A DNA stretch of 64,000 bases. Source: Asaia bogorensis. GTDB taxonomy: Bacteria > Pseudomonadota > Alphaproteobacteria > CACIAM-22H2. Positions within the stretch are counted from its first letter, which is position 1, and each line of letters opens with the position of its first letter. Shown one piece after another: positions 21,986 to 31,242 of the stretch. The stretch lies in the NCBI GenBank assembly GCA_945892765.1, contig CAMDDQ010000001.1, positions 40,486-104,485 of the forward strand, given 5' to 3'. Position numbers and translations under genes: made by a program. The notes below the pieces were generated by a model. The model was not told the origin of the DNA and did not search any database. It worked only from the letters and a program-made list of their open reading frames with translations.

Positions 21986-23759
21986 AAGGCCTCGATCTGG
22001 CCCTGGCGACCGCGCACCTCCACCAGGCCGATGGATGTGACGGGAAGATCGAGCTTTGACGCCTGCCGCGTGACCCCGCTCATCACGACCACGACATTGC
22101 CGGGCTTATCGATGGACTTGCCAAGCTGCTCCAGCCGGTTCGCGGTGTTCACCGTGTCGCCGACGATGGTGTAGTTGATGCGGCCGGGTGCGCCGATATT
22201 GCCGACGACCACGTCACCCGAATGCAGTCAGATGCGAATGCCCAAGGTCCCGCCCTCGCGCCCCATGGCCTCGGCGATGGCCAGTGCCGCGCGGCAGCCA
22301 CGGGCGGCATGGTCTTTCTGTTTCTCGGGCGCGCCCCAAAAGGCCATGACATCGTCGCCGATGAATTTGTCCACGGTGCCACTCTCGGCCTCGATGCAGG
22401 CGGTGATCAGCCCGAAATGTCGGTTGAGCAGCGGCGCGACCTCCGGCGCCGGGAGTTTTTCCGCCATCGTGGTGAACCCGGCGATGTCGGTGAACATCAC
22501 TGTGACGGTGCGTTCCTTCGACGGCATCGCACCCTTGGCCGCGTCCCATTCGCCATGGCCGACCAGTCGCTGCACCAGCTTCCTGGGGACATAGGTCTCG
22601 AACCAACGCAGCCCGACGACCATGGCGTTGAAGGCCTGGCCGGCGGCGTTCAGTTCCACGAACAGGGTACGGGGTAACCTTTCGACCGTATCGAGCGACA
22701 AATCGCTTACCCGCCTTGCGGCGATCGAAAGCCGGATCAGCGGCACGGTCAAATATCGGGAATAACCGTAAGCGACCAGCAACGAGACGAGCAGAACCGC
22801 GATCCCGGCGATCGCCGCCCAGCGCAGGCGTGTCAGTTCGTCGGTGATGTCGGTGGCCGCGAAATAGACTCCGACTTCCCAGGGCTTGTCGCTGTAACGG
22901 TCCAAGACGCGCGACAGCATGGCATATTGAATGCCCCCGGATTCGGCGAGCCGAATGCCGGTCTTTTCGATGAAGTCCCGGTCGAGCACGCCCAATTTCT
23001 GCGGGCGGTCAAAAGCCAGGAGAACCGGATCCCCGACCTCCGCGATCGTGGGCAGCAAATTCTCGCCGCGCGGCGGCCGGCGCGTCTGAAGAAGAGGATG
23101 GGCGAGGACCATGTGATGGTCGTAAAGAATGAAGGCCGTGCCTTTGAGGGTGCGCGCGGTGTCGTCGAGAATTTGCGAAAACTGGTCCACCTGGACGGTG
23201 CCACCAATAGCCCGACATAATTGCCGCCGATGCGAACCGGATAGCGAACATTGACCAGCACCTGATCGGCGGTTTCCGGCAGCACGATTTCGGCCCAATA
23301 CAGCCCCGTCCTGTCGCGCGCCGCGTCCATGGCGTTGCTGATGACCGGCATCTCCCGCACATCGATGACATCGAGAGCGACTCCATTCGGATGGCGAAGG
23401 GCCCGCAGCATCGAATTGTCGGTGCCGATGAGTACGAGCGAACGCACTTCGGGAGTCGCCGACAAGGCGCCGGCCTCGATCTGGCGGGCAAGGTGAATAA
23501 GCTGACTCTCCACTGGCCGCAGATATTGGTCGATCACGCTGACGATCTGCAGGCTCGCGGCTTCGGATTTGTCGCGCAGCAAGTCGATGGTATTGGTGCG
23601 GGCGCTCCAGAGGCCGAGCGCGAGGGCCGAAGCCACGGCAAGGAAGACGAGGCCGCCGAAGCCAAGCACCAATCCGGTGGCGATCTTGATCTCGGCCGAC
23701 GGGTGCGGCGCCTCGCCTTGTGCGGCCGGCGCGGCAATGGCGGGGGAGTGGCTTTTCAT
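21964..23759 (-). pseudogene. disrupted sensor adenylate/guanylate cyclase (dCache-like periplasmic domain, HAMP, class III cyclase)
   Basis: The reading frame switches near 23200-23215 (RIGGNYVGL in one frame, AIGGTVQVDQFSQILDD continuing in another). An in-frame TGA at 22228-22230 sits inside the catalytic domain (...GTLGIRI*LHSGDVVVGNIGAPGRINYTIVGDTVNTANRLE). Confidence 0.6.
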
Positions 23760-23784
23760 GACGGCACCAAGCTAAGAATACCGG

Positions 23785-24555
23785 ATGATCGTGCATTTCA
23801 TCGGCGCGGGGCCGGGTGCCGCAGACCTTATCACGGTGCGCGGCCTCAACCTCATCCGGCGCTGCCCCGTCATTCTTTATGCCGGATCGCTGGTCCCGGA
23901 GGCGGTGGTCGCGGAGGCCCCCCAAGGCGCCCGAATCGTCGATACCGCGCCGCTCCACCTGGATCAAATCGCGGAAGAGATGCGCGCCGCCCATGCCCGG
24001 AACGAGGACGTGGCGCGAATCCATTCCGGCGATCCCTCACTGTACGGCGCGATCGGGGAGCAGATGCGGCGGCTCGACGCTTTGGGTATCCCGTATGACG
24101 TGACGCCGGGCGTGCCGGCCTATGCGGCGGCGGCGGCGGCGCTGCGCGCCGAGTTGACCCTGCCTGGACTTAGCCAGACCGTGATCCTAACCCGCACCGC
24201 CGTGCGAGCCTCACCCATGCCCGAAGGGGAGTCGCTGTCCAGGCTTGGGGCCAGCGGGGCGACGCTCGCCATTCATCTGTCGATCAACAACCTCGCCGTC
24301 GTTCTTCGCGAATTGACACCTTTGTATGGCGGCGATTGCCCGGTCGCCGTCGTCCACCGTGCCTCGTGGCCGGACGAGGCGATCCTGCGCGGCACACTCG
24401 CCGACATCCGCGCCAAGGTGAAGGCGGCGGGGTTCACGCGCACGGCCATGATCCTGGTCGGCCGCGCCTTGGCGCCGGCCGGCTTCGACGACAGCCGGCT
24501 TTATGCCGCCGACCATCGCCATGTCTGCCGCAAAGCCGGAAACGATCAGGACTGA
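23785..24555 (+). CDS. cobM: precorrin-4 C11-methyltransferase CobM/CbiF
   Basis: [20 protein letters not shown]...[14 protein letters not shown]. Confidence 0.9.
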
Positions 24556-26489: not shown

Positions 26490-27030
26490 CTATGTCATCG
26501 CGCCGATGCCATACAGCCAAGCCACGGCCACAGCCATGGACAGCAACGCGATCGGGATGCCCGCCCGGGCATGGTCGGCGAAACTCAGGCGAACACCCAC
26601 CGTTGCCGCTCGCTCCACCACGATCAGATTGGCGATGCTGCCGACCAGCAGAAAATTGCCGGCGAGCGTCGATAAAAGGGCCAGTCCGTGAGGCGCGCCT
26701 TTCGGCAATTCCGGCCACATCTCCAGCAGCATCACAACCGCGGGCACATTGCCGATCGTGTTGCTGAGGACCAGCGCCAACGGCGCCATCAAATGCAGGC
26801 GGTCTGGCAGCCAACCCTGCTCCGCCAGCATTCCCAGAAACGCGTTGGGCGGGCCTGTGGCGGCAAAGGCGTCATTGACGACGAACAAGGCGGCAAAAAG
26901 AACAAGAAGTGGCCAGTCGACGGTCACGAGCAGGTCGCGGCTGGCGAAGCGGCGGCTGAACAACATCGCTGAGGCAACCAAAAGCGCCGCACTTTCGCGC
27001 GGCAGCTCCGTCGCGAACAAGACGAGGAGG
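26490..27030 (-). CDS. membrane protein resembling the C-terminal half of an ArsB/NhaD-superfamily permease (possible gene remnant)
   Basis: Hydrophobic repeats (...LVLSNTIGNVPAVVMLLEM...LLSTLAGNFLLVGSIANLIVVE...). No ATG is available, TTG is the probable start, and only ~180 aa remain, about half a typical permease. Confidence 0.35.
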
Positions 27031-27081
27031 ACACCAACCCCCAGGCCGGCGCCCGGGATCGACGAAGCCCCGGCGAGAGTC

Positions 27082-29109
27082 TCAGGCGCCGCGCACCGCC
27101 ATGGGCTGCGGGGCGGCGGTCGCGGTCGCCGACACCTGGGACCCGGGCTGCACGCGTGGCGCCGCCGCCGGCTTGCGGGCCTGGGTAACACGCTCCTGCG
27201 CCGCCTCCAGGATCAGGCGCAGCAGGTCGGCGTAACGCAGCCCGGCATAACTCGCCATGATGTTGAGCTTGCCGTCCCAGCACCAGCCGGGATTGGGGTT
27301 GACCTCGAGCAGCTTGATCGCGCCTTCGGCATCGGCGCGGAAGTCGAATCGCGCATAGTCGCGACAACCCAGGCGCTCGAACAGCACGGTCGAGTAGTCG
27401 ACCAGGCGGCGCCGCACATCCTCGTCGATCGCCGCCGGCTTGTACTTGATCTGCGTCCAATAGGGCGATTCCGGCACCCATTTCGATTCATAAGAAAGAA
27501 TCTTGGGCAAATCGGCGTTGAGCCCGCTGAAATCGACCTCGAGCGTGGGCAGCACCTGATAGCTCAATCCGGGATTGCCGATGATGCCGATGCTGTATTC
27601 CGCGCCGGTGAGATATTCTTGCACCAGCACCGGGCGACCGGGCAATTCCTCGCGCAGCTTTTCCAGATAGGTGATCGCTTCTTCCGGCGTCCACACCACG
27701 GCGTCCTTGGTGATGCCTATGCTGCTGTCGCCGAAACAGGGCTTGATCAGCGCCGGAAAGATAGATGGCAGGTTCGCCGATTGGTCGTCCGGGTTGACAT
27801 AGGTTTCGGCCGGGACCGGGAGATCGAGCGATTCGGCGATCGAACGGACCAACGCCTTGTTGTAACAAAGGCCGAGGCAGCTCGCGCCGGCGCCGGTATA
27901 GGGCACGCCCAGCATTTCAAGCAGCGCCGGCACATGCGGCTCGAGGAAGGCGTCGTTGTTGAAGCCTTCGTCGCAGAGATTGAGCGCGAACTTGGGCGGG
28001 TTGGCGCGAAGCTGGCTGACCATCGCGGTGTGATTGTCGATGAAGTCGAATTTGTAACCGGGCAATTCGCCCAGGGCCTCGCGCAGGCGCTTGATAGTTT
28101 CGAAGTCTTCCTTATTGAACTGGCCGCCGCGCTTGACCATGTCGGGCAGGCGCGGATCACCCATGACAACGCTGACCTCCGGGTAAGCGATGCCGCGCAC
28201 CGCCGTGACCGCGACCTTGCGCGGCGCCTGCGCCGTCAGGAACATACGCGTGGCCATCATGCCCAGGTCTTGGTTGCGGCCGGATTCGGTGCCCACCCAA
28301 TCGTGGAACCGCAGCGATTCGAAACCGACTCGTTCCAGGAGCTCGCGGATGCGTTCACGTGAATAGAGGCGCTCGGCATAAAATTGATCGGCGATCACGC
28401 CGCGTTCGGCATGCACAACAACTTCGCGCGAAACCAGGCGTTGTTGATCGTTGGCGAGCGAACGTTCGCGGCAGACAAAGTGATTCTGGTCGATCCATTC
28501 CCAGGACCGCCGCTCGAAATGCGTCCGCAGCCAGTCGCCATCGGCAAGGTCCATGGCCAGCGTGCCGTTGGAGGCCAGCGCCCGTTTCACCGCCTCCAGC
28601 ACCGCCACGTCGTCTTCCTCGCGGTCGAAATAGCCGTAGGAATTGCCCATCAGCGTGACGCAGTGGAAGGAATTCTCCGGAACCCGAAATTTGCGGGCGT
28701 CGCCTTCATGGAAGGAGACGTTGAGGCCCAACTGCTTGGCGCGTTTGCGGGCGAGCCGGACCAGATAACGCGAGCGGTCGATGCCGGTGACGGCGTTGAA
28801 GCCCCGGCGCGCGAGTTCGATGACGTGGCGACCCTGGCCGCAGCAGAGATCGAGGATGCGGTCGTTCGGCTCCAGACCCGACGATTTGATCAGCGAATCG
28901 ATTTCGCGCCCGGTATTGGTGTCGTTTTCGACGACATCGCCATCGGTTTGGATGTAGAGCGAATTGAACAGCGTCCGCCACCAATCGGATGGCAGGTGGC
29001 GCTCGAGATCGGAAACCGGGCCAAGCGTTCTTACCGGTCCCTGCGGCTTGGGCGTACCGTTCCCATTGGGTTTATGGACGCCGTTGCCGTTGGACGACTT
29101 TTTCGCCAT
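27082..29109 (-). CDS. class I SAM-dependent methyltransferase fused to a D-Ala-D-Ala-ligase-like ATP-grasp domain
   Basis: MTase motif I ILDLCCGQGRHVIELARRG. C-terminal ATP-grasp segments (LVQEYLTGAEYSIGIIGNPG, DYARFDFRADAEGAIKLLEVNPNPGW). Start at M64 of the ORF frame (MAKKSSNG). Confidence 0.7.
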   Translation of the reverse strand: MAKKSSNGNGVHKPNGNGTPKPQGPVRTLGPVSDLERHLPSDWWRTLFNSLYIQTDGDVVENDTNTGREIDSLIKSSGLEPNDRILDLCCGQGRHVIELARRGFNAVTGIDRSRYLVRLARKRAKQLGLNVSFHEGDARKFRVPENSFHCVTLMGNSYGYFDREEDDVAVLEAVKRALASNGTLAMDLADGDWLRTHFERRSWEWIDQNHFVCRERSLANDQQRLVSREVVVHAERGVIADQFYAERLYSRERIRELLERVGFESLRFHDWVGTESGRNQDLGMMATRMFLTAQAPRKVAVTAVRGIAYPEVSVVMGDPRLPDMVKRGGQFNKEDFETIKRLREALGELPGYKFDFIDNHTAMVSQLRANPPKFALNLCDEGFNNDAFLEPHVPALLEMLGVPYTGAGASCLGLCYNKALVRSIAESLDLPVPAETYVNPDDQSANLPSIFPALIKPCFGDSSIGITKDAVVWTPEEAITYLEKLREELPGRPVLVQEYLTGAEYSIGIIGNPGLSYQVLPTLEVDFSGLNADLPKILSYESKWVPESPYWTQIKYKPAAIDEDVRRRLVDYSTVLFERLGCRDYARFDFRADAEGAIKLLEVNPNPGWCWDGKLNIMASYAGLRYADLLRLILEAAQERVTQARKPAAAPRVQPGSQVSATATAAPQPMAVRGA

Positions 29110-29492
29110 TGCGCGCTCGCGTTTTCGGGTTGATGGGGAGGCAAAACCGGCTTCGCCGGGAAAGACATCGGACGCACGCCCGCCCAGGCCGGCTTCGTGC
29201 AACGAAGCGGATGATGAGCCTATGGCCGCCTCCGACCGTAATTTGGCCGGCGGCGGCAGACTACTCCCAGGGTCGGGATCGGGTGATTGACGAGGCATTC
29301 TCGCGCACGTTCGTCGAGCCGCTACTTAACGTCGCGGTCGGACGGCCGTCAAGCGGTTCGGAAACGATTCGCGGCGGGCGACACAAAAAATTGAAGGGTG
29401 CGACTGAGGGGTCACTGTGGATGATTCGATCGCGTGCCCACAGACCGAGATTCGGCCGCCTATGTTTCGCCGAAAAGGCGGTATAGGCTGAG

Positions 29493-30338
29493 ATGATGAA
29501 CGACAATTCGACGATCGATTTGCCGGTGTTCGAGAGCGGATGGGTTTGGCTGGTTGGCGCCGGCCCGGGCGAACCCGGATTGCTGACGTTGCTCGCTCAT
29601 CACGCGCTCCGCTCGGCCGACGCGGTCGTTTACGACGCACTTGTCGATCCGCGCATCCTGAAACTCGCGCGGCCGGGCGCACGCCTGGAATATGCGGGCA
29701 AGCGCGGCGGCAAGCCTTCCTCCCGGCAGCCCGACATCTCAGGACGGCTGATCCAGCTCGCGCGCCGCAAGCTCCGTGTGCTCCGCCTCAAGGGCGGCGA
29801 TCCGTTCGTGTTCGGCCGCGGCGGCGAAGAGGCGCTGGCGCTGGTCGCCGCCGGCATCCCCTTCCGGCTGGTGCCTGGAATCACCGCTGCCATCGGGGGA
29901 CTCGCCTATGCCGGCATCCCGGTCACGCATCGCGACACCAACTCGGCGGTGACCTTCGTTACCGGCCACGCCGCGGGCGGCGACGTCCCCGACGATGTGG
30001 ACTGGACCGCGCTGTCGCGCGGCGCGCCGGTCCTGGTGATTTACATGGCCCTCAAACACCTCGATCGCATCGCCGCGCGGCTGATCGCGGCGGGACGTCC
30101 AGGCACCCAACCGGTCGCCATCATCAGCAAGTCGGCGACGCCGGATCAGCGCGTGCTGGAAACGACGCTCGATTCCTGCGCCGCGGATGCCACGACGCAT
30201 CACATGGAGCCACCGGCGTTGATCGTCGTCGGCGAGACGGTGCGGCTGCGCGCGGGGCTCGACTGGATCGGCGCGTTGTCCGGGCGGGTTCTCGACGCCG
30301 ATCCACTCCGCAACCGGCATCGGCGGAAAAGCGTGTGA
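29493..30338 (+). CDS. cobA: uroporphyrinogen-III C-methyltransferase CobA (SUMT)
   Basis: WLVGAGPGEPGLLTL...VLRLKGGDPFVFGRGGEE. Confidence 0.9.
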   Translation: MMNDNSTIDLPVFESGWVWLVGAGPGEPGLLTLLAHHALRSADAVVYDALVDPRILKLARPGARLEYAGKRGGKPSSRQPDISGRLIQLARRKLRVLRLKGGDPFVFGRGGEEALALVAAGIPFRLVPGITAAIGGLAYAGIPVTHRDTNSAVTFVTGHAAGGDVPDDVDWTALSRGAPVLVIYMALKHLDRIAARLIAAGRPGTQPVAIISKSATPDQRVLETTLDSCAADATTHHMEPPALIVVGETVRLRAGLDWIGALSGRVLDADPLRNRHRRKSV

Positions 30339-30619
30339 GATACGGCTCCTGCCTGCGCGCCGGGTTGTCGGGCGCCGCGTTCCTTTTTGTTTCGGCCTGC
30401 GCGCCCTCCGGCTTGCAATGGGTGCGCGAAGGCACGGGTCCTGACGATTTCCGCCGCGACCAGGCCGGTTGCCTCGACCGCGCCGGCGATTTCGATTTCA
30501 TGTCCGGCGGCCGCCGCGAGGAACGCCCGATTGACCGCAGCCAGGGACATATCTATCGCACCTGCCTGGAGGCGTTGGGGTATCGGCAGGTGCGCGTGAA
30601 TTCGGGGCGCGGATCATGA
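30335..30619 (+). CDS. small putative lipoprotein
   Basis: GTG start overlapping the cobA stop; signal/lipobox AAFLFVSAC; its stop overlaps the ATG of the next gene (ATGA). Confidence 0.45.
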   Translation: MRYGSCLRAGLSGAAFLFVSACAPSGLQWVREGTGPDDFRRDQAGCLDRAGDFDFMSGGRREERPIDRSQGHIYRTCLEALGYRQVRVNSGRGS

Positions 30620-31242
30620 CCGGCTACACCCGCATCCTGGCCGTCCTGCTCGCCGTTCTGATCGGCGGCGGCGTCGGGCTGCTGGCGCGGCTGGCGCTCT
30701 ACCCATCGGAGGCGCCGATCGTTACCGTCCTGCGCGAGGGTGCGGCGACCGGCGCCTCGTTGATCGGCGGTCCGTTCACCCTGGTCGATCAAAACGGCTT
30801 GACCCGCCAGGACACCGAATTTCGCGGGCGGCTCATGCTGGTGTATTTCGGCTTCACCTACTGCCCCGATGCCTGCCCAACCAGTCTCCAGGTCATGAGC
30901 GACGCGCTCGACATGCTCGGCAATGACGCCCCGCGCGTTCAGCCGATCCTCATCACCATCGATCCTACGCGCGACACGCCGCAAAGACTGAAAGACTATG
31001 CCGCTCATTTCCATCCACTTTTGCTGGCGCTCACCGGCACCGCCGAGCAGGTGGCAGAGGCGGCGCGCGCCTATCGCGTCTATTACGCGAAATCGGCGGC
31101 CACGGCGCCGGAGGATCCGGACTACATGATGGATCATTCGTCGTTCATTTATCTGATGGGATCTGACGGAAAATACCTGACCCATTTCCGTCCCGATGTG
31201 CCCGCCGATCGCATCGCGGCAAACCTGCGCGATCATCTGTGA
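30616..31242 (+). CDS. SCO1/SenC family thioredoxin-fold copper chaperone
   Basis: N-terminal TM segment and the CPDACP motif (YFGFTYCPDACPTSL), plus a conserved His. Confidence 0.85.
   Translation: MTGYTRILAVLLAVLIGGGVGLLARLALYPSEAPIVTVLREGAATGASLIGGPFTLVDQNGLTRQDTEFRGRLMLVYFGFTYCPDACPTSLQVMSDALDMLGNDAPRVQPILITIDPTRDTPQRLKDYAAHFHPLLLALTGTAEQVAEAARAYRVYYAKSAATAPEDPDYMMDHSSFIYLMGSDGKYLTHFRPDVPADRIAANLRDHL

Follow-up and report, generated by a model that had tools for sequence, protein, structure and literature searches.

The window, a 64,000-nucleotide stretch of DNA, contains on its minus strand a gene whose product joins a class I methyltransferase (MT) to an ATP-grasp domain. This gene is located between those for CbiD/CobK/CobM and CobA/CobB and is divergent from cobA (29493-30338, plus strand), with the following features in its immediate surroundings:

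26490..27047, minus strand: remnant of a CitMHS/ArsB-type permease, C-terminal third (matching Pfam CitMHS at profile positions 204-312 of 336), which does not belong to the enzyme
26985..27042, minus strand: two terminator-like hairpins with U-runs, directly past the stop codon of the fusion gene
27082..29109, minus strand: coding sequence of the 675-aa fusion protein, with its stop codon at 27082-27084
29110..29492, no strand assigned: divergent spacer of 383 bp shared with cobA

The open frame extends over 27082..29298 (minus strand), and its first ATG would give a protein of 738 aa. The start at 29109 assumed in the sequence-only reading (MAKKSS..., 675 aa) agrees with the homologues, which begin 20-50 residues ahead of the conserved RTLGPVSDLERHLP block, while the in-frame stretch upstream of it is open and less conserved in the close relatives L001 and L002. 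Database record P0001 is the identical protein. Pfam searches of both halves placed, within a single frame, Methyltransf_25 (residues 85-182, E 2e-20) and Dala_Dala_lig_C (residues 450-634, E 1.6e-20), and both halves were contained in a single ORF in 80/80 genomic homologues (median 676 aa). The sequence-only reading, which had described one 676-aa fusion, held that domains in separate ORFs, or an ATP-grasp half devoid of its ATP-binding Lys/Glu residues, would speak against it; the two domains share one uninterrupted ORF, and these Lys and Glu residues are present and invariant. The two halves are conserved to an equal degree, with strong purifying selection on each. A structure model of the whole protein reached a pLDDT of 72.8 and a pTM of 0.52, a moderate quality from which communication between the domains is not reliably readable and which counts against reading a small-molecule enzyme into it.

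The surroundings of the gene were also largely as first described. Divergence from cobA across about 380 bp was borne out by the measured 383 bp, and the spacer showed no Rfam match at gathering score or E<=10, including no cobalamin riboswitch, and no fold beyond chance (z-score -0.11), arguing against a riboswitch or attenuator. Likewise, the truncated permease-like gene downstream was recovered as the remnant listed above, which lacks its N-terminal half, is even shorter in L001 and is probably a pseudogene. Lying next to this decaying fragment, the fusion gene appears to have been inserted into the cob cluster; its GC3 of 0.79, compared with 0.75-0.84 in its neighbours, gave no signal of recent horizontal transfer.

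Two features were delimited in the N-terminal half of the protein:

28222..29028, minus strand: class I SAM methyltransferase domain with a beta-rich cap, residues 28-296 (Pfam, PDB match and model secondary structure)
28831..28851, minus strand: SAM-binding motif I DLCCGQG (D87-G93), invariant in homologue alignments

This half is a class I SAM-dependent methyltransferase, as it combines the fold and motif I with the acidic residue after strand 2 and the motif II Asp, and its cofactor residues D87/G91/G93, D111 and D137 are all conserved in the family alignments. Eight MT Pfam families matched it at E<1e-6, and Foldseek returned 3d2l, 1wzn and 9ri2. The nearest solved relative is NmbA (PDB 9ri2; E 1e-21, residues 46-274), about 28 bits ahead of the second-best solved MT, and the named relatives that follow, the daptide MT, CypM (PDB 7WZG) and ToxA, are N-methyltransferases of free amines. 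Since the closest characterised relatives are thus mostly N-methyltransferases, N-methylation is favoured over O-methylation.

NmbA N-methylates the cysteine alpha-amine of bacillithiol, a small amino-acid conjugate, and carries a cap domain in which one helix and four beta-strands form a substrate basket; the AlphaFold model of NmbA itself is reported to mis-organise the cap strands (PMC12719100). The alignment of our MT half to 9ri2 extends through this cap, for which the moderate-confidence model predicts a helix (191-197) and strands at 201-205, 210-218, 224-233 and 237-247. However, the identity of 32% over 184 aa (BLASTP) or 26% (Foldseek) falls under the range of 35-95% within which NmbA homologues have been delimited (PMC12719100), and the MT domain of the fusion clade includes an extra, family-specific N-terminal block, WW...TDGDVVEN, together with RSWEW/CRER motifs. 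In addition, no bsh genes were seen in the 64 kb of host sequence, and N-Me-BSH has been reported from lineages other than these hosts. CypM and the daptide-type RiPP N-methyltransferases, which dimethylate a free terminal amine, are likewise among the best named matches, but the score against daptide_MTase (NCBIfam) was 64 bits for a cut-off of 175, and the gene neighbourhoods contain neither a precursor peptide nor other RiPP genes. A DsyGD-like DMSP enzyme, also an MT with a second domain, was rejected as a model (the DsyGD paper makes no mention of any ATP-grasp), as was the cystargolide/belactosin 'cryptic methylation' pathway, in which the fusion is CysF-CysE and not MT-ATP-grasp (PMC11427300).

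The remainder of the protein comprises the linker, the ATP-grasp domain with its predicted functional sites, and a tail:

28180..28221, minus strand: inter-domain linker, short and of low model confidence, residues 297-310
27187..28179, minus strand: complete Ddl-like ATP-grasp domain with all three subdomains, residues 311-641 (Pfam, NCBIfam, PDB matches, Foldseek and hhalign)
27856..27858, minus strand: K418, equivalent of DdlB K97, predicted to bind the ATP phosphate
27742..27744, minus strand: K456, equivalent of DdlB K144, predicted to bind ATP
27478..27483, minus strand: K543-W544, equivalents of DdlB K215-Y216, with Trp in place of the Ddl specificity Tyr
27298..27351, minus strand: R587, D589, E602 and N604, equivalents of DdlB R255, D257, E270 and N272, predicted acyl-phosphate and Mg2+ site
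27262..27300, minus strand: family signature NPNPGWCWDGKLN, in place of the Ddl second-substrate loop, with S281/L282 changed to G613/K614
27085..27186, minus strand: C-terminal tail, Ala/Pro-rich and non-conserved, residues 642-675

Fold and invariant Lys/Glu/Asp/Asn residues for ATP and Mg2+ make this half a member of the ATP-grasp superfamily. It matched Ddl with a Foldseek TM of ~0.75 over ~340 columns and an hhalign probability of 99%, and all solved ATP-grasp matches at E<=1e-3 among the matches listed were Ddl or Van ligases, enzymes with small-molecule substrates, which counts for a small-molecule role of the fusion. The ATP-grasp models among the 25 top-ranked of 84 NCBIfam families were likewise all of Ddl or Van type; ATPgrasp_Ter was a further, weak Pfam match. 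E504 aligns to DdlB E187 and is invariant, S462 (equivalent to DdlB S150) is retained in bacterial orthologues and replaced by G or N in eukaryotic, archaeal and L164 members, and DdlB E15 could not be aligned. Like Ddl (EC 6.3.2.4) and VanA, the half has the three-subdomain fold with the ATP, Mg2+ and acyl-phosphate residues, and because these residues are retained, it presumably carries out the same acyl-phosphate ligase chemistry. It differs from both in an identity of only ~20-30%, in the Trp for Tyr216, in the G/K within the invariant NPNPGWCWDGKLN and in the fused MT. Trp544 was restricted to MT-linked ATP-grasps, whereas the stand-alone ATP-grasp clade has Ala or Thr at this position, suggesting that the pocket of the ligase changes according to whether an MT is linked to it.

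There are thousands of homologues, with matches in 465/185,579 genome representatives, and they share 65-77% identity across Alphaproteobacteria, Planctomycetota, Sumerlaeota and Omnitrophota. For a secondary-metabolite enzyme such identity would be unusually high, which in this respect counts against a small-molecule product. The fused form was found in 80/80 genome loci and most metagenome loci, while a Nitrososphaerota archaeon and another bacterium encode the MT and the ATP-grasp as two overlapping separate genes, and chytrids, Blastocladiomycota and Monosiga carry eukaryotic fusions. A stand-alone ATP-grasp clade (47-58% identical) occurs with no MT nearby, and stand-alone MTs occur with no ATP-grasp; MT-only proteins of 444-559 aa, which contain MT Pfam domains only, are taken to be putative truncated or frameshifted fusions. 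The homologues bear generic names or none, JGI calling many of them 'D-alanine-D-alanine ligase', and we found no paper on this MT-ATP-grasp family, nor any literature match for the Monosiga accession. The family is thus large, strongly conserved and unstudied, and extends beyond bacteria to archaea and some unicellular eukaryotes; both enzyme kinds, the class I MT and the Ddl-like ATP-grasp, are known, and it is their fused variant that is uncharacterised.

Comparison of gene neighbourhoods showed that outside L001 and L002 the contexts are unrelated to cob and the gene stands alone. No neighbour conserved across phyla was found in the loci compared, which fits an enzyme needing only ubiquitous precursors. 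Ornithine decarboxylase, encoded downstream of the fusion in only 23 Stellaceae/alphaproteobacterial loci and absent from the window and from other phyla, was treated as inherited synteny and rejected as a functional partner. A recurring link was to SET-domain genes. Orthologous MTs (62% identical) that lack an ATP-grasp form operons with tandem SET-domain proteins in L168 and L172, and the fused orthologue in L164 overlaps a SET-SET gene by 4 nt. MT-SET or SET-MT fusions were recognised in P0188 and P0255 (from reading the sequence) and in P0384 (Pfam), and the L170 cluster contains an ATP-grasp-MYND-SET-SET protein. The nearest solved relatives of the SET proteins are histone-lysine methyltransferases. 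As SET domains are classically protein-lysine methyltransferases, this link points toward a protein or peptide target, and the SET operons and the overlapping fused orthologue count against a small-molecule product. An ABC exporter adjoins some of the orthologous MTs; beside the SET and MT genes it gave only generic MsbA/HlyB-type matches, with none to a specific RiPP or thiol exporter.

The sequence-only reading had proposed that the protein makes a small N- or O-methylated amide or peptide. The architecture and the intactness of both active sites were borne out, and the proposed role is still the best reading, with the N-methylated version favoured. We infer, with a probability of about one half, that the fusion is a self-contained bifunctional small-molecule enzyme that forms an amide bond via an acyl-phosphate and N-methylates a free amine on the same molecule. 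The Ddl-like ATP-grasp domain would bind ATP and Mg2+, convert a carboxylate into an acyl-phosphate and couple this to an amine, giving an amide or dipeptide-like product, and the NmbA-like MT, with SAM as methyl donor, would methylate a free amino group on the ligase substrate or product. The ligase chemistry, the preference for N- over O-methylation, the molecule shared by both domains and its small size are all parts of this proposal, by which precursors common in the cell would be turned into an N-methylated amino-acid amide or dipeptide as the final product. That this product carries a thiol-bearing or diamino-acid moiety is only a tentative guess. If the small-molecule reading holds, an N-methylated small amide or peptide would be made in hundreds of environmental species as well as in chytrids and choanoflagellates, and might turn out to be a compatible solute, redox buffer or signal of a new kind.

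Among the alternatives, a modification of proteins or peptides deserves the closest attention, although we regard it as somewhat unlikely. Here, the ATP-grasp would attach an amino acid to a conserved protein, at a terminus or on a side chain, in the manner of RimK or tubulin-tyrosine ligase, the MT would methylate its alpha- or epsilon-amine, and the SET partners would methylate lysines. The SET operons, overlap and fusions, the histone-lysine methyltransferases as nearest SET relatives, the action of CypM and the daptide MT on peptide termini and the very high conservation across phyla and domains, as expected for a conserved macromolecular target, all argue for it. A eukaryotic precedent is TTLL12, which unites a SET-like and a tubulin-tyrosine-ligase-like ATP-grasp domain in one protein (PMC3520985) and thus resembles the accessory genes of L170 and L164, but belongs to another ATP-grasp branch, is eukaryote-specific, acts in a protein context and was compared by architecture alone. 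Against this alternative, the ATP-grasp of the fusion falls in the Ddl branch, and neither Pfam nor the 25 top-ranked of 84 NCBIfam families matched it to a RimK, TTL or graspetide-maturase model. Nor is any candidate for a target gene conserved alongside it, and SET genes are missing from the window and from ~159/160 fusion-carrying loci. The association with an ABC exporter and gshB suggests a diffusible product instead, and a SET enzyme acting on a free amino acid does exist in BurB, a weak match in the SET structure search, which we take to be a methionine S-methyltransferase. The two domains might also serve unrelated substrates, their fusion reflecting co-regulation or an accident of gene order, since each half exists alone; this appears improbable, as three domains of life have retained the fusion or overlap, the two halves show equal conservation and Trp544 tracks the linkage to the MT.

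The remaining two alternatives derive from the genomic position and from current annotation, respectively. A role in cobalamin biosynthesis or salvage, as a corrinoid-linked MT or an amide-forming step, is suggested by the location between cbiD and cobA and by a weak match to the corrinoid-protein-associated MT CpaM (NCBIfam; 44 bits, cut-off 180). Placement inside the cobalamin locus is thus correct as a matter of position, but extends no further: cob neighbours occurred only in L001 and L002, 98-99% identical members of the same lineage, and in none of the other ~165 related loci. Together with the missing cobalamin riboswitch and the apparent insertion beside a decaying permease, this synteny makes a cobalamin role very improbable, and the placement among B12 genes is a coincidence. 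In addition, the known corrin amidations are carried out by CobB/CobQ-type enzymes and not by ATP-grasps. Still less credible is a true peptidoglycan D-alanine--D-alanine ligase with an incidental MT fusion, even though JGI uses this name and Ddl and VanA rank first among the Pfam, PDB and fold matches. The best Ddl NCBIfam model scored 111 bits against a cut-off of 243, the equivalog models failed widely (50-73 bits against 310-775), and the substrate positions differ (Y216 to W, S281/L282 to G/K); judged by these sequence criteria, the fusion protein is not a D-Ala-D-Ala ligase. In the homologue neighbourhoods examined, neither mur nor ddl genes appeared, and the family is present in archaea, chytrids and a choanoflagellate, organisms which are not known to make murein. 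Accordingly, the family should be neither called D-alanine--D-alanine ligase nor counted as a cobalamin gene.

Known small-molecule systems offer partial parallels to the proposed amide-forming N-methyltransferase. GshF is a bifunctional enzyme in which a gamma-glutamylcysteine ligase is joined to a Ddl-like ATP-grasp half that completes a small thiol peptide; the fusion protein differs in lacking the gamma-glutamylcysteine-ligase domain and in having a methyltransferase as partner, and GshF was not among the best 60 of 81 PDB matches. In the NAGGN osmolyte pathway, Ngg combines a GNAT acetyltransferase with an ATP-grasp dipeptide ligase, builds a dipeptide and caps its amine, yielding a stress-protectant from common amino acids; its acetyl instead of methyl capping and its other ATP-grasp branch make this a likeness by analogy only. 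On a more speculative view, which we consider doubtful, the fusion would be the core enzyme of an undescribed pathway common to bacteria, archaea and early-branching opisthokonts, in which a small peptide or amide is built from common amino acids and its amines are permethylated, tandem SET enzymes act on the small molecule and a cNMP-domain ABC exporter releases the product, candidates being a new low-molecular-weight thiol, N-methylated and containing cysteine, or a betaine based on lysine or a diamino acid. The recurring SET link could extend SET small-molecule chemistry or reveal a new protein modification.

Two linkages of more distant relatives count for a small-molecule product. In two related, diverged contigs, MT relatives of 38-41% identity are encoded immediately after gshB, itself the gene for another ATP-grasp peptide ligase. 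Searches of plasmids (tblastn) returned only paralogues of 30-32% identity, one of which (31% identical) lies together with genes for diaminobutyrate, diaminopropionate and beta-lysine.

Both domains of the fusion gene lie in a single minus-strand open reading frame (ORF), with matches to Pfam methyltransferase (MT) families and Dala_Dala_lig_C, as the sequence-only reading had claimed. The gene and its immediate neighbours in the window are as follows.

27082-29298, minus strand: fusion-gene ORF in its longest form, one long ORF
26490-27047, minus strand: remnant of a CitMHS/ArsB-type permease, C-terminal third without the N-terminal half (Pfam profile positions 204-312 of 336)
29493-30338, divergent from the fusion gene across a 383-bp spacer: cobA

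Initiation at 29109 yields a 675-aa product. The N-termini of 24 diverse homologues are variable and start 20-50 residues ahead of the first conserved block, RTLGPVSDLERHLP, while the in-frame extension to 29298 is open in two close relatives, yet varies more than the protein body. Because the homologue N-termini agree with 29109 and the extension is more variable, this position was kept as the probable start, with modest certainty. The leader contains a GC-rich 5-bp hairpin followed by UUUU (29147-29159, minus strand), with its stem ending 38 nt before the ATG. An attenuator-like role is conceivable, but the whole leader folded no better than shuffled sequence and matched no Rfam family.

In Pfam, residues 80-196 matched Methyltransf_25 and related MT families (up to 264 for Methyltransf_23) and residues 450-634 matched Dala_Dala_lig_C; the NCBIfam D-Ala-D-Ala ligase (Ddl) models aligned from residue 340 to ~640. 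Alignment of the ligase half to E. coli DdlB (PDB 1IOV) identified K418, K456, S462, E504, K543, R587, D589, E602 and N604 as equivalents of K97, K144, S150, E187, K215, R255, D257, E270 and N272, to which hhalign added H392 (H63). All are invariant across a 25-sequence alignment, and archaeal and eukaryotic members retain all but S462, which is G or N in several. The MT half retains motif I (D87-L-C-C-G-Q-G93), D111 and D137. An AlphaFold2 model (pLDDT 72.8, pTM 0.52) matched Ddl structures with a TM of ~0.75 over ~340 columns, as well as the class I MTs 3d2l, 1wzn and 9ri2. Judged by these residues, both active sites are intact. With one shared ORF and conserved ATP-binding residues and MT motifs, neither objection foreseen by the sequence-only reading (separate ORFs, or an ATP-grasp lacking its ATP-binding Lys/Glu) applies.

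The divergent arrangement with cobA and the truncated permease-like gene downstream were likewise correctly noted from sequence, the former at 380 bp. Permease homology begins ~35 nt past the fusion-gene stop codon and encloses two terminator-like hairpins; its recognisable part measures 175 aa in L002 and only 59 aa in L001, two near-identical loci of the window's own lineage. The remnant appears to be a pseudogene in decay that resulted when the fusion gene inserted into the cob cluster; the arrival of the fusion gene probably coincided with disruption of the permease gene. The GC3 of the fusion gene agrees with the host. Its placement within a cobalamin locus proved to be positional only, since cob flanks occur solely in L001 and L002, contexts elsewhere are unrelated and no riboswitch is present at the gene. 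These observations effectively exclude a cobalamin role. Clustering of ORFs from 80 genomic loci revealed no neighbour conserved across phyla; the sole recurrent ones, an ODC-like decarboxylase and AnmK, were confined to related alphaproteobacterial loci. Called-gene tables from Pirellulales, Sumerlaeota, Isosphaeraceae and two further contigs showed the fusion gene alone in unrelated surroundings.

Compared with D-Ala-D-Ala ligases, the ligase half scored 111 bits with the best Ddl model against a cut-off of 243, and fell short of the equivalog cut-offs by several hundred bits. The Ddl specificity residue Tyr216 is replaced by Trp544, which is restricted to MT-linked ATP-grasps (stand-alone members have Ala or Thr there), and S281/L282 of the second-D-Ala loop by G613/K614 within the invariant NPNPGWCWDGKLN motif. 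Together with the presence of the family in organisms without murein, these differences effectively exclude a true Ddl. For the MT half, the closest solved relative was 9RI2 (E 1e-21, residues 46-274, ~28 bits over the next MT), which is NmbA, the N-methyltransferase acting on the cysteine amine of bacillithiol (PMC12719100). The MT half and NmbA share just 26-32% identity, under the 35% applied by the authors of that study (PMC12719100), so the domain belongs to a related clade and is not an NmbA orthologue; the clade is marked by a signature of its own (WW at positions 43-44, TDGDVVEN, RSWEW, CRER). Further named matches were a daptide RiPP N-methyltransferase (NCBIfam), CypM and ToxA, and as these and NmbA all act on nitrogen, N-methylation is favoured.

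Among 5.8 billion proteins searched, 5,538 matched; the best 120 are without exception full-length fusions (630-720 aa, 68-77% identity), and the only names they carry are 'methyltransferase domain-containing protein' or (JGI) 'D-alanine-D-alanine ligase'. Scanning one genome per species gave 465 relatives. Among these, a freshwater Rhodospirillales/Rhodospirillaceae MAG (98-99% identical) represents the lineage of the window itself; other carriers were Stellaceae and other Alphaproteobacteria, Phycisphaerae, Pirellulales, Isosphaeraceae, Sumerlaeota and Omnitrophota. Searched exhaustively with HMMER, 1.84 billion representatives yielded 655 matches at E<1e-30. Among them are ATP-grasps and MTs that stand alone, and long eukaryote-like proteins that look-ups assigned to Monosiga brevicollis, chytrids (Gonapodya, Polyrhizophydium, Synchytrium, Quaeritorhiza), Olpidium and Blastocladiomycota. 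In these organisms, nine proteins (P0127, P0131, P0134-P0137, P0140, P0141, P0147) are full MT-ATP-grasp fusions of 47-51% identity with long low-complexity inserts and every catalytic residue kept; eukaryotic members are annotated as hypothetical, 'ATP-grasp domain-containing' or 'D-alanine--D-alanine ligase' (Synchytrium). In a Lokiarchaeia protein (P0184), the ligase domain is joined to leucine-rich repeats. Literature searches found no paper on the fusion family and no description of the MT/ATP-grasp/SET/exporter association. The family is abundant in databases and uncharacterised, each half falling outside its nearest characterised family by that family's membership tests, and represents a well-defined target for enzymology.

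Relatives of the two halves lie in the following arrangements at other loci.

L166 9079-10852 and L167 796-2707, plus strand: stand-alone MT of the clade overlapping the gshB 3' end by 32 nt
L101 9068-12271, minus strand: stand-alone ATP-grasp with Peptidase_S15 hydrolase, likewise in 11 other metagenome loci
L172 2995-6849, L168 5230-6921 and L164 177-2944, plus strand: recurrent operon (ABC exporter with C-terminal cNMP-binding domain)-SET-SET-MT(-ATP-grasp)
L170 1149-3740, plus strand: 863-aa protein with Ddl-like ATP-grasp, MYND zinc finger and two SET domains

On two diverged contigs, more distant MTs (38-41% identical) come immediately after gshB, which encodes a bona fide glutathione synthase, also an ATP-grasp; in L167 the gene call upstream is chimeric, joining a BamA-like N-terminus to a GshB C-terminus. 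In 12 of 18 loci, the gene of the stand-alone ATP-grasp clade (47-58% identical to the ligase half) is convergent with one for an S15 (CocE/NonD) peptidase; amidohydrolases are nearby in L101, and alongside lies a conserved 340-aa protein that matched nothing in Pfam, NCBIfam or PDB. On the Thioflavicoccus mobilis plasmid pTHIMO01 (L174, 2569-8050), a paralogue with 31% identity to the ligase half clusters with genes for diaminobutyrate and diaminopropionate and a KamA gene: a diaminobutyrate transaminase, SbnA, an SbnB-like cyclodeaminase and a KamA-type aminomutase. This cluster looks like a diamino-acid peptide pathway. MT and ATP-grasp are overlapping separate genes in a Nitrososphaerota archaeon (L169) and another bacterium (L171), and their coupling is ancient.

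The most economical reading, to which we give a probability of about 0.5, is a self-contained enzyme whose ligase half would form an amide via an acyl-phosphate and whose MT half would N-methylate a free amine on the same small molecule. The small methylated amide or peptide proposed from sequence is retained here, with N- favoured over O-methylation. That the genome contexts are varied and unlinked is consistent with an enzyme whose precursors are ubiquitous. Small amino-acid conjugates are indicated by the kinship to NmbA, the linkage to gshB, the origin in the Ddl branch, the exporter and the diamino-acid paralogue.

A role in protein modification is less probable, about one chance in four by our estimate, and is suggested by the unusually high cross-phylum conservation of the fusion and by its association with SET genes. 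Genes for MTs 62% identical to the target MT domain share their operons with a pair of SET-domain genes or with one for a tandem-SET protein (L168, L172), sometimes preceded by the cNMP-domain ABC exporter. Of the two SET types, the first has a post-SET Cys cluster (W.F.C.CG...C) and the second resembles small viral/bacterial SETs (vSET, S. pombe Set7). In L164, a fused orthologue and a SET-SET gene overlap by 4 nt; MT-SET fusions are found among relatives, and in L170 the 863-aa protein, the exporter and an MT stand in a row on a bacterial-type contig. The window contains no SET gene, and nearly all fusion-bearing loci lack one too. A SET domain alone does not imply a protein target, as illustrated by BurB, a weak match in the SET comparison and a SET enzyme whose substrate is a free amino acid. 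That SET enzymes act on the small molecule itself, in a new thiol or betaine pathway across three domains of life, appears more doubtful still. The architecture of the 863-aa protein is SMYD-like and eukaryote-looking.

Two further genes of the window were observed. Between cobA and cobB lies a SCO1/SenC copper-chaperone gene (30616-31242, plus strand), an odd guest for a cobalamin cluster, which is kept in L001 and L002 and whose end overlaps the longest cobB ORF (31196). By eye, the C-terminal part of a long ORF at 22228-24024 (minus strand) resembles a class III adenylate/guanylate cyclase catalytic domain (…VMFTDIAGFT…KFIGDDVMAFWGAP…); as listed, this ORF overlaps cobM on the opposite strand, so that its true start must lie further in.
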